A DNA stretch of 21,171 nt from Escherichia coli. Its GTDB lineage: Bacteria; Pseudomonadota; Gammaproteobacteria; Enterobacterales; Enterobacteriaceae. The translations under genes were made by a program, and so were the position numbers. Positions 1 to 174 of this stretch are shown here, one piece after another. The notes under the pieces were generated by a model. The model was not told the origin of the DNA. It worked only from the letters and a program-made list of their open reading frames with translations, and made no database searches. Every line of letters begins with the position of its first letter. Position 1 is the stretch's first letter. The stretch lies in NCBI RefSeq assembly GCF_003334355.1, contig NZ_QOWP01000047.1; one strand, given 5' to 3'.

Positions 1-75
1 GGTCGTTAGCTCAGTTGGTAGAGCAGTTGACTTTTAATCAATTGGTCGCAGGTTCGAATCCTGCACGACCCACCA
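1..75 (+). tRNA. lysZ: tRNA-Lys (anticodon UUU), 5' end cut by window edge (first G missing)
   Basis: Identical to the complete tRNA copy at 208-283 minus its first base; anticodon TTT at 33-35; ends in CCA at 73-75. The paralogue name is by position (penultimate gene of the lysT-valT-lysW-valZ-lysY-lysZ-lysQ operon) and is less certain than the tRNA identity. Confidence 0.9.
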
Positions 76-156
76 ATTTAAAGGTGGTTACTGGTAGAGA
101 ACGTGAAGGATAACGTTGCGTTAGCAACGGCCCGAAGGGCGAGACGAAGTCCAGTC

Positions 157-174
157 ATCCTGCACGACCCACCA
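157..174 (+). repeat. Orphan copy of the tRNA-Lys 3' end (ATCCTGCACGACCCACCA) inside the inter-tRNA spacer
   Basis: 18 nt identical to the last 18 nt of both flanking tRNA-Lys genes, including the encoded CCA, with no upstream tRNA body. Confidence 0.8.

Follow-up and report, generated by a model that had tools for sequence, protein, structure and literature searches.

The window analysed here is a 21,171-nt stretch of an Escherichia coli genome (contig NZ_QOWP01000047.1 of assembly GCF_003334355.1), identical to E. coli strain 720632, and it opens inside the lysT operon of tRNA genes. All features of the window described below lie on the plus strand. The first, lysZ, is a tRNA-Lys(UUU) gene at positions 1-75; its first base is missing at the window edge, it gives a 5'-truncated match of 71.1 bits to the Rfam tRNA model, it is annotated as tRNA-Lys in the identical strain, and it corresponds to K-12 lysZ. 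A spacer of 132 nt (76-207) separates it from lysQ (208-283), a complete tRNA-Lys(UUU) gene found by ARAGORN and scoring 79.2 bits against the same model. An operon terminator hairpin with a T run, read from the sequence, follows at 289-314, and nadA lies downstream of it. The operon neighbours are tolB-pal-cpoB on one flank and nadA-pnuC-zitB on the other, with seven tRNA genes between them. Strong Rfam matches (142-154 bits) to the CpoB/ybgF intercistronic thermometer fall at the pal-cpoB junction upstream of the tRNA operon (718-856 in the extract from strain 405, L002; 1041-1179 in that from IHE3034, L003); they are unrelated to the repeat discussed here and are expected as a normal part of the locus.

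Our starting point was the 18-mer ATCCTGCACGACCCACCA, read directly at 157-174 within the spacer. A pattern search of the window returned exactly three plus-strand copies, at 58-75, 157-174 and 266-283, and no further copy with up to two mismatches, while 100 dinucleotide shuffles gave a chance expectation of 0.00. The first and third copies are the 3' ends of both tRNA-Lys genes as delimited by ARAGORN and the Rfam tRNA model. The middle one corresponds to tRNA-Lys positions 59-76, that is, the 3' strand of the T-arm, the 3' strand of the acceptor stem, the discriminator base and CCA, and the identity ends at 18 nt: the base before ATCC is A in the tRNA but C in the spacer copy. Searches of 76-207 for a tRNA body with ARAGORN and the Rfam tRNA model were negative. 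The earlier note that drew attention to this spacer had described an exact copy of just this composition with no tRNA body upstream, and our readings agree with it on each of these points. Its term "orphan", however, does not hold, as the 18-mer forms the 3' end of a 99-nt element that can be recognised at 76-174. Probes or primers directed at the tRNA-Lys 3' end will also match the spacer copies.

The 18-mer is almost certainly the terminal repeat of a tRNA-linked repeat (TLR), the family represented in Rfam as RtT (RF00391). The Rfam model matches window positions 7-174 with 56.7 bits, against a gathering score of 45. The 3' two-thirds of the alignment (approximately 107-174) has high posterior probability and is the convincing part, with the hairpin CGUUGC/GCAACG, GCCCGAAGGGCGAG and the end that resembles a tRNA, whereas in the 5' third the 5' helix strand of the model is drawn from the body of lysZ across a 43-nt insertion and is partly artefactual. 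Because this 5' third is borrowed from lysZ, we take the actual element to be a short form of 99 nt, which begins at position 76, the base after the lysZ CCA, and ends at 174, with lysQ 33 nt further downstream; its structure was for the same reason re-derived from RNAfold and an alignment of 24 sequences. The element is identical at 98 of 99 positions to the TLR that follows lysZ in K-12 (781445-781543), in the same spacer, the sole difference being C for G at window position 152. This C breaks the GAGTC junction consensus of the family. The NCBI pipeline gives the element no RtT annotation in the window strain.

According to the summary by Stenum et al. (2021; PMC8144298), the first TLRs to be noticed were those at tyrT (Egan and Landy, 1978), and Rudd's 1999 catalogue for K-12 lists 22 copies, distributed over ten loci that have one to five each. 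[quoted passage not shown] The five K-12 units of the lysT operon agree with the figure of "one to five TLRs per locus". Like the K-12 TLRs, the window element stands in a tRNA operon directly after a tRNA gene, ends in 18 nt identical to that tRNA, carries the core CGTTGC..GCAACG-GCCCGAAGGGCGAG and the closing helix, and scores above the gathering threshold; it differs from the RtT prototype of tyrT in being a short form without model positions roughly 24-60 (the GAGAA/TTCGA hairpin region). The 178-bp repeats of tyrT-tyrV, which include rtT RNA (rttR, b4425), share the family and the core with the Lys element and likewise end in a copy of the host tRNA, the 19-nt 3' end of tRNA-Tyr, with a complementary 5' strand GGGGAAGGAT, but their host is tRNA-Tyr and they are of the long form. 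They follow tyrV as three tandem units that overlap the small tpr ORF, and their released RNA measures 171 nt. Since the 18-mer is the end of a catalogued TLR, what the earlier note had found is the defining feature of a known element. Both the element and the 18-mer are already known, as a K-12 repeat family with a decades-old catalogue and an Rfam entry. The note had itself allowed that the copy might prove to be part of a longer repeated spacer unit, and so it is, the unit being the TLR described in 1978 and 1999.

RNAfold gives the element (76-174) a structure of -34.3 kcal/mol (z -3.3), in which the last A is the sole unpaired base of the 18-mer. The 18-mer supplies the 3' strand and the CCA end of a closing helix whose 5' strand, CGTGAAGGAT at 102-111 (CGUGAAGGAU as RNA), is complementary to 157-166 at 9 of 10 positions, the exception being an A.G mismatch. 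This mismatch is kept by all 16 Lys short-form copies aligned, and at its position the K-12 copy after lysW has T, which gives a U.G pair instead. An outer helix is predicted between GGTGG at 83-87 and CCACC at 169-173; GGTGG is present in the types found after lysT and lysZ and absent from the type found after lysW and lysY. Inside the closing helix lie three small hairpins. The first, CGTTGC-GTTA-GCAACG (114-129), belongs to the conserved core. The second, GCCC-GAA-GGGC (130-140), is the most conserved core motif, and in long-form elements Rfam pairs it with an upstream UUCG segment instead. The third, GAC-GAA-GTC (143-151), is small and variable.

When 24 distinct elements of the short form, taken from Lys and Arg(ACG) operons, are aligned, 94.7% of the cells are paired, compared with at most 48% when the partners are slid, and the closing helix shows compensatory changes (U-A to G-C). 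The hairpin at 114-129 is paired in 97.9% of alignment cells, and the family as a whole has 14 distinct stems for it. For the third hairpin there are 38 sequence variants, which form 18 distinct stems, with five pair types at one position of the 24-element alignment; its mean stem is 3.39 bp, against 1.79 bp in shuffles, and the top mean among 2000 shuffles was 2.21 bp. Such upkeep of stems through many sequences indicates, on comparative grounds, selection on a folded single strand, most simply RNA.

Comparison with other E. coli strains places the borders of the element precisely. The 99-nt module at 76-174 sits inserted between the CCA end of lysZ and its usual trailer: in strain IHE3034, lysZ ends in ...ACCCACCA, followed directly by TCCTGAATGATTAAAGCAGCATAATCCCGCAAG and then lysQ, and the sequence beginning TCCTGAATG that adjoins its CCA is the window sequence after position 174, so that the trailer/leader spacer at 175-207 adjoins the lysZ CCA directly in element-free strains. 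The lysT operon holds five copies in K-12 MG1655, four in strain 405, three in the window strain and none in IHE3034. In K-12 there is one unit after each of the five Lys genes of the operon (1131-1230, 1420-1517, 1724-1821, 1946-2044 and 2190-2309 of the K-12 extract, L125). The long Lys spacers of related strains all score as RtT, and no RtT match was obtained in the IHE3034 operon, where the spacers are short (35, 48 and 33 nt). Subtracting one kind of spacer from the other leaves exactly one unit of about 99 nt that ends in the 18-mer, and each gain or loss among the four E. coli genomes is bounded exactly by the tRNA-end repeat. Two subtypes can be told apart, one at the sites after lysW and lysY, the other after lysT and lysZ. 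Orthologues of the copy after lysT, with the same trailer, occur in Citrobacter, Pluralibacter and Phytobacter, so IHE3034 lost this copy secondarily, through a precise deletion. The filled lysZ-lysQ junction occurs in at most 1990 of 5426 complete E. coli genomes, which is an upper bound; the corresponding BLAST count of empty junctions is unusable, the pieces on either side of the element merging into one place.

The earlier note had proposed comparing the spacers of the whole operon and of relatives for conservation of the fragment. It does recur in several spacers, but by no means in every one, with zero to five copies per strain. IHE3034 and other element-free strains are viable pathogens, so the element is dispensable. 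Private changes also occur within 18-mers, namely ATCTTGC and CCTACCA in strain 405 (L002, 2660-2662 and 2443-2447) and GAGCCACCA after lysY in strain 720632 (L001, ~2440), and these point changes in individual copies mean that constraint on the repeat is not absolute. The identity between copies often continues a few bases past CCA, and once for 36 bases. After lysQ, K-12 and strain 405 carry a fifth, long-form element flanked by a 54-nt direct repeat, so that two identical terminators stand with the element between them, whereas the window strain has one terminator and no element there (~284-320). The 54-nt repeat consists of the 18-nt tRNA end and the whole operon terminator (L002, 2784-2959; L125, 2154-2345). 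The lysW-valZ spacer, for which PMC4176162 quotes 150 nt in K-12, measures 51 nt in the window strain because the element is absent (L125, 1420-1568, against L001, 2148-2198), and the sizes of K-12 processing intermediates will differ from those in other strains.

The same arrangement recurs well beyond this operon. A scan of species-representative genomes with a 19-nt core returned at least 120 stretches. Among the matches listed, a gene for tRNA-Tyr(GTA), Lys(TTT), Arg(ACG), Arg(CCG) or Pro(TGG) precedes the core by 50-125 nt, and 5S rRNA also occurs upstream of it; the core is conserved over several orders of Gammaproteobacteria and five host RNAs, the taxa that bear it being Enterobacterales together with Gilliamella, Marinobacterium and others. 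Every element among these matches closes with the 3'-terminal sequence of the RNA that hosts it, starting in the T loop at (A)ATCC, and 67 of 80 sampled elements among them are identical to the upstream tRNA end at 18 of 18 positions. At three loci where the host tRNA has a lineage-specific substitution in the acceptor 3' strand (host ends Tyr ...CCCCCGCCACCA and Lys ...CACGCCCCACCA), all four elements present copy it. At a fixed position upstream of the core stands a 5' strand complementary to the element's own copy, GGGGAAGGAT for Tyr, CGTGAAGGAT for Lys and CAGGGAGGAT for Arg(ACG); Arg(CCG) elements have CTGGAGGG and Pro elements AGAGGAT at the same position. Tyr and Arg(ACG) strands pair with their cognate copies at 9-9.4 of 10 positions; for Lys the figure is 8.5 of 10 when one element without an extractable 5' strand is counted, while cross-type combinations of Tyr, Lys and Arg(ACG) pair at 6.5-8.4 of 10. 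Tandem arrays with periods of about 156-178 bp occur at tyrT, in Klebsiella and in Pantoea.

The long forms have further regularities. Just before the core they carry the 5' strand of the host T-stem and TTCGA, and just after it host positions 59-76, so that the last ~28 nt of the host appear split by the core at T-loop position 58/59; GAGAA and the T-stem 3' strand stand upstream as an inverted partner. Examples are L004 (2067-2198, minus strand), L025 (~300-480), L057, L027, L063 and L078. A similar split is seen in 5S-linked copies, which read GAGAGTAGGA, core, AACTGCCAGGCAT, with GGCAGTTC.CTACTC upstream; these elements end in the 5S 3' end AACTGCCAGGCAT, and the identity runs 7-9 nt into the trailer (CAAATTAA). 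Some of them lie between 5S rRNA and a tRNA-Thr(GGT) or tRNA-Asp(GTC) gene (5S-linked loci: L012, L065, L067, L068, L085, L093, L112 and L119).

Many matches to the 19-nt core outside Enterobacterales (Alcanivorax, Arsukibacterium, actinomycetes and metagenome-assembled genomes) were excluded on their flanks as other repeats or chance. Alcanivorax sp. 24 (L030-L044) has more than 20 copies of a different repeat, in which the 19-nt motif is followed by CCGCCATGGACGGCGGTCATAAAAAA and no tRNA gene adjoins; similar units occur in Pectobacterium, Brenneria and Pseudomonas (further loci: L059, L081, L082, L100), and this is probably an unrelated REP-like family with a common GC-rich hairpin motif. 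An apparent plasmid copy (NZ_CP098226.1, annotated as a 50-kb plasmid) was likewise rejected: it is a frameshift-ridden chromosomal gltX-valU-valX-valY-lysV region, with the look of a contig that is of poor quality or misassigned, not of a mobile tRNA operon.

What the 18-mer might do is best considered at the level of the transcript. The lysT operon yields one precursor of ~1.1 kb that includes the spacers. RNase P cleaves this precursor at the 5' ends of the tRNAs, and exonucleases then remove the long trailers; the spacers are described only as such trailers, removed by RNase II and PNPase (PMC4176162). As part of this transcript, the module would fold by pairing of the 18-mer with 102-111 and of 169-173 with 83-87 into a compact structure holding the three small hairpins. 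The closing helix would reuse the T-stem and acceptor 3' strand of the tRNA and end in ACCCACCA followed by the original trailer, and in this way the element would recreate the tRNA's own junction between mature 3' end (CCA) and trailer. Enzymes that process tRNA ends would then treat its 3' end as that of a tRNA, with an endonuclease cut in the trailer or RNase P cleavage at the next tRNA, followed by trimming by 3' exonucleases up to the helix-adjacent CCA. The outcome would be a discrete, structured by-product with a protected 3' end, while the maturation of lysZ and lysQ would proceed unharmed. We give about even chances to the 18-mer acting as a processing determinant in this manner.

Among the readings offered by the earlier note, a context for 3' processing fits best and is the best supported by outside evidence, which comes from the 5S-linked TLRs. 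RrB RNA has its 5' end 3 nt after the 5S end and its 3' end 3 nt after the repeated copy, both of which its authors attributed to an RNase E site specified by the repeated sequence and structure; the 5S-linked TLRs are alone in tying the repeat to RNA end formation experimentally (PMC8144298). RrA, RrB and RrF share with the Lys element the core motif and a terminal repeat of the host RNA 3' end, but they have a 5S host, lie between two terminators and contain GGA motifs, and in vitro they bind CsrA and Hfq. In the published record, release of a discrete RNA is described for tyrT rtT and RrB only, and none turned up for the Lys spacers. Searching Term-seq tables (supplements of PMC7815308) at the K-12 positions of all five elements gave no 3' ends, in files that may be truncated or stripped of tRNA loci.

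At the DNA level, the direct repeat of the tRNA end would let the unit be precisely deleted, tandemly duplicated or exchanged between alleles, and recombination of this kind would account for the zero to five copies per operon observed among E. coli strains. Taken together, the TLR identity, the RNA-processing mechanism and this turnover of the DNA unit form the account that we moderately favour as a whole.

A neutral or selfish repeated DNA would need no RNA role at all: homology to the tRNA would allow copying, conversion and deletion through recombination or slippage, and the 18-mer would matter only as recombination homology. Much of the distribution is what such a repeat would give, including the 0-5 copies with precise junctions in one operon, the tandem arrays, the identity that extends beyond CCA (at one site through the entire terminator) and copies that follow host tRNA variants as gene conversion would make them do, and tRNA-linked TLRs have no known function (PMC8144298). 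Identity past CCA fits duplication at the DNA level at least as well as selection on RNA, and strains without copies as well as point changes in the 18-mer count against a necessary function. Yet the hairpins at 114-129 and 143-151 and the closing helix are kept through many sequences, indicating selection on a folded strand, and the core persists over several gammaproteobacterial orders and five host RNAs among the matches listed. We consider a purely neutral repeat unlikely.

Alternatively, the excised spacer RNA could act in trans as an sRNA or sponge that binds protein or sRNAs, with the tRNA-like end serving only to stabilise it, on the model of the 5S-linked RrA/B/F RNAs (Hfq, CsrA) or of the 3'ETS-leuZ sponge. 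The conserved fold, the in vitro binding of Hfq and CsrA by RrA/B/F (PMC8144298) and the appearance of RtT-family RNAs on Actinobacillus Northern blots (PMC4986893) all speak for a stable and interacting RNA. The Lys element also resembles 3'ETS-leuZ and other functional tRNA spacer RNAs in being a spacer of a polycistronic tRNA transcript that could survive processing; 3'ETS-leuZ, however, has no tRNA-end repeat, and for the Lys element, unlike 3'ETS-leuZ, we found no evidence of sRNA pairing or Hfq binding. Moreover, the 19 tRNA-linked TLRs all score below 0.01 in a predictor of CsrA binding, and the originally claimed role of rtT RNA in the stringent response has been retracted (both PMC8144298), while the element is dispensable in many strains. 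A trans-acting function for the Lys element appears quite improbable.

Processing could also be affected from the 5' side, if the closing helix and ACCA mimicked the acceptor/T-arm minihelix recognised by RNase P, and a cut at the 5' base of the helix shortened the upstream trailer. Processing of the lysT operon does depend on RNase P (PMC4176162), and Arg(ACG) elements form a 13-bp helix of GCACCAGGGAGGAT with ATCCTCCCGGATGC that leaves exactly ACCA single-stranded. The Lys helix of the window, on the other hand, stops 8 nt before the 3' end, or else GGUGG sequesters the CCA; Tyr elements leave 6 nt, the T-loop is absent, and PMC4176162 mentions no RNase P site within the spacers. A stacked helix of ~12 bp followed by single-stranded NCCA is thus found only in the Arg(ACG) relatives and not in the window copy, and we regard such a punctuation signal as very improbable here.

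The insert might instead be the remnant of a Lys or Val tRNA gene, left by the tandem duplications that built the operon, with its 3' end alone intact. Positions 83-100 weakly resemble the acceptor and D region of tRNA-Lys (TGGTAGAG; local alignment p = 0.026-0.04), and the T-stem 5' strand and TTCGA before the core of long forms could be taken in the same sense. Against this, ARAGORN and the tRNA model are negative in 76-207, the similarity is not significant for five other copies (Lys or Arg), and the central 45 nt are the family core common to unrelated host RNAs. The likeness of TGGTAGAG/GGTGGTTA to the 5' half of tRNA-Lys, being marginal and confined to this copy, was set aside as unsupported, and a decayed tRNA is a highly improbable origin. 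The earlier note's idea of a tandem-duplication scar survives to the extent that the repeat makes the unit prone to duplication and deletion; the insert itself is very unlikely to be a decayed Lys or Val tRNA and consists of a conserved core.

Finally, an attL/attR remnant of a phage or island that used tRNA-Lys, the att-core footprint raised in the earlier note, would likewise have a tRNA 3' segment directly repeated on both sides of an insertion that some strains carry and others precisely lack, but it is effectively refuted by an insert of just 81 nt made up entirely of a conserved enterobacterial non-coding fold, by five copies in one operon, by relatives behind Tyr, Arg and Pro tRNAs and 5S rRNA, each with its host's own end, and by the lack of any integrase, recombinase or foreign gene among the annotated neighbours of the operon and its flanks (cpoB, tRNA genes and nadA). 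The interpretation of the earlier note as a whole is partly supported: the longer repeated unit and the processing context hold, and the att core fails.

As the rediscovery of a catalogued feature, the 18-mer has little importance as a finding, and it is the function and origin of the family that carry the remaining interest. TLRs could be actively maintained mimics of the "top half" of stable RNAs, a speculative reading to which we assign a low probability; a core of ~45-65 nt may be re-fitted, in its 5' strand and its 3' end, to each host RNA that it follows. Such re-fitting would proceed by templated copying (conversion by the host gene, or an RNA-templated or copy-back event), and the RNA would order or buffer 3'-end processing in multi-copy stable-RNA operons. 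The pattern alone fits both active templating and slow selection combined with ordinary recombination. The host-specific ends, the compensating changes in the closing helix and in two hairpins, and the copy number of zero to five together speak for selection on the folded RNA and for a rapid turnover of the DNA unit. With its natural zero-copy and five-copy alleles, the lysT operon offers a convenient system in which to test the role of TLRs.
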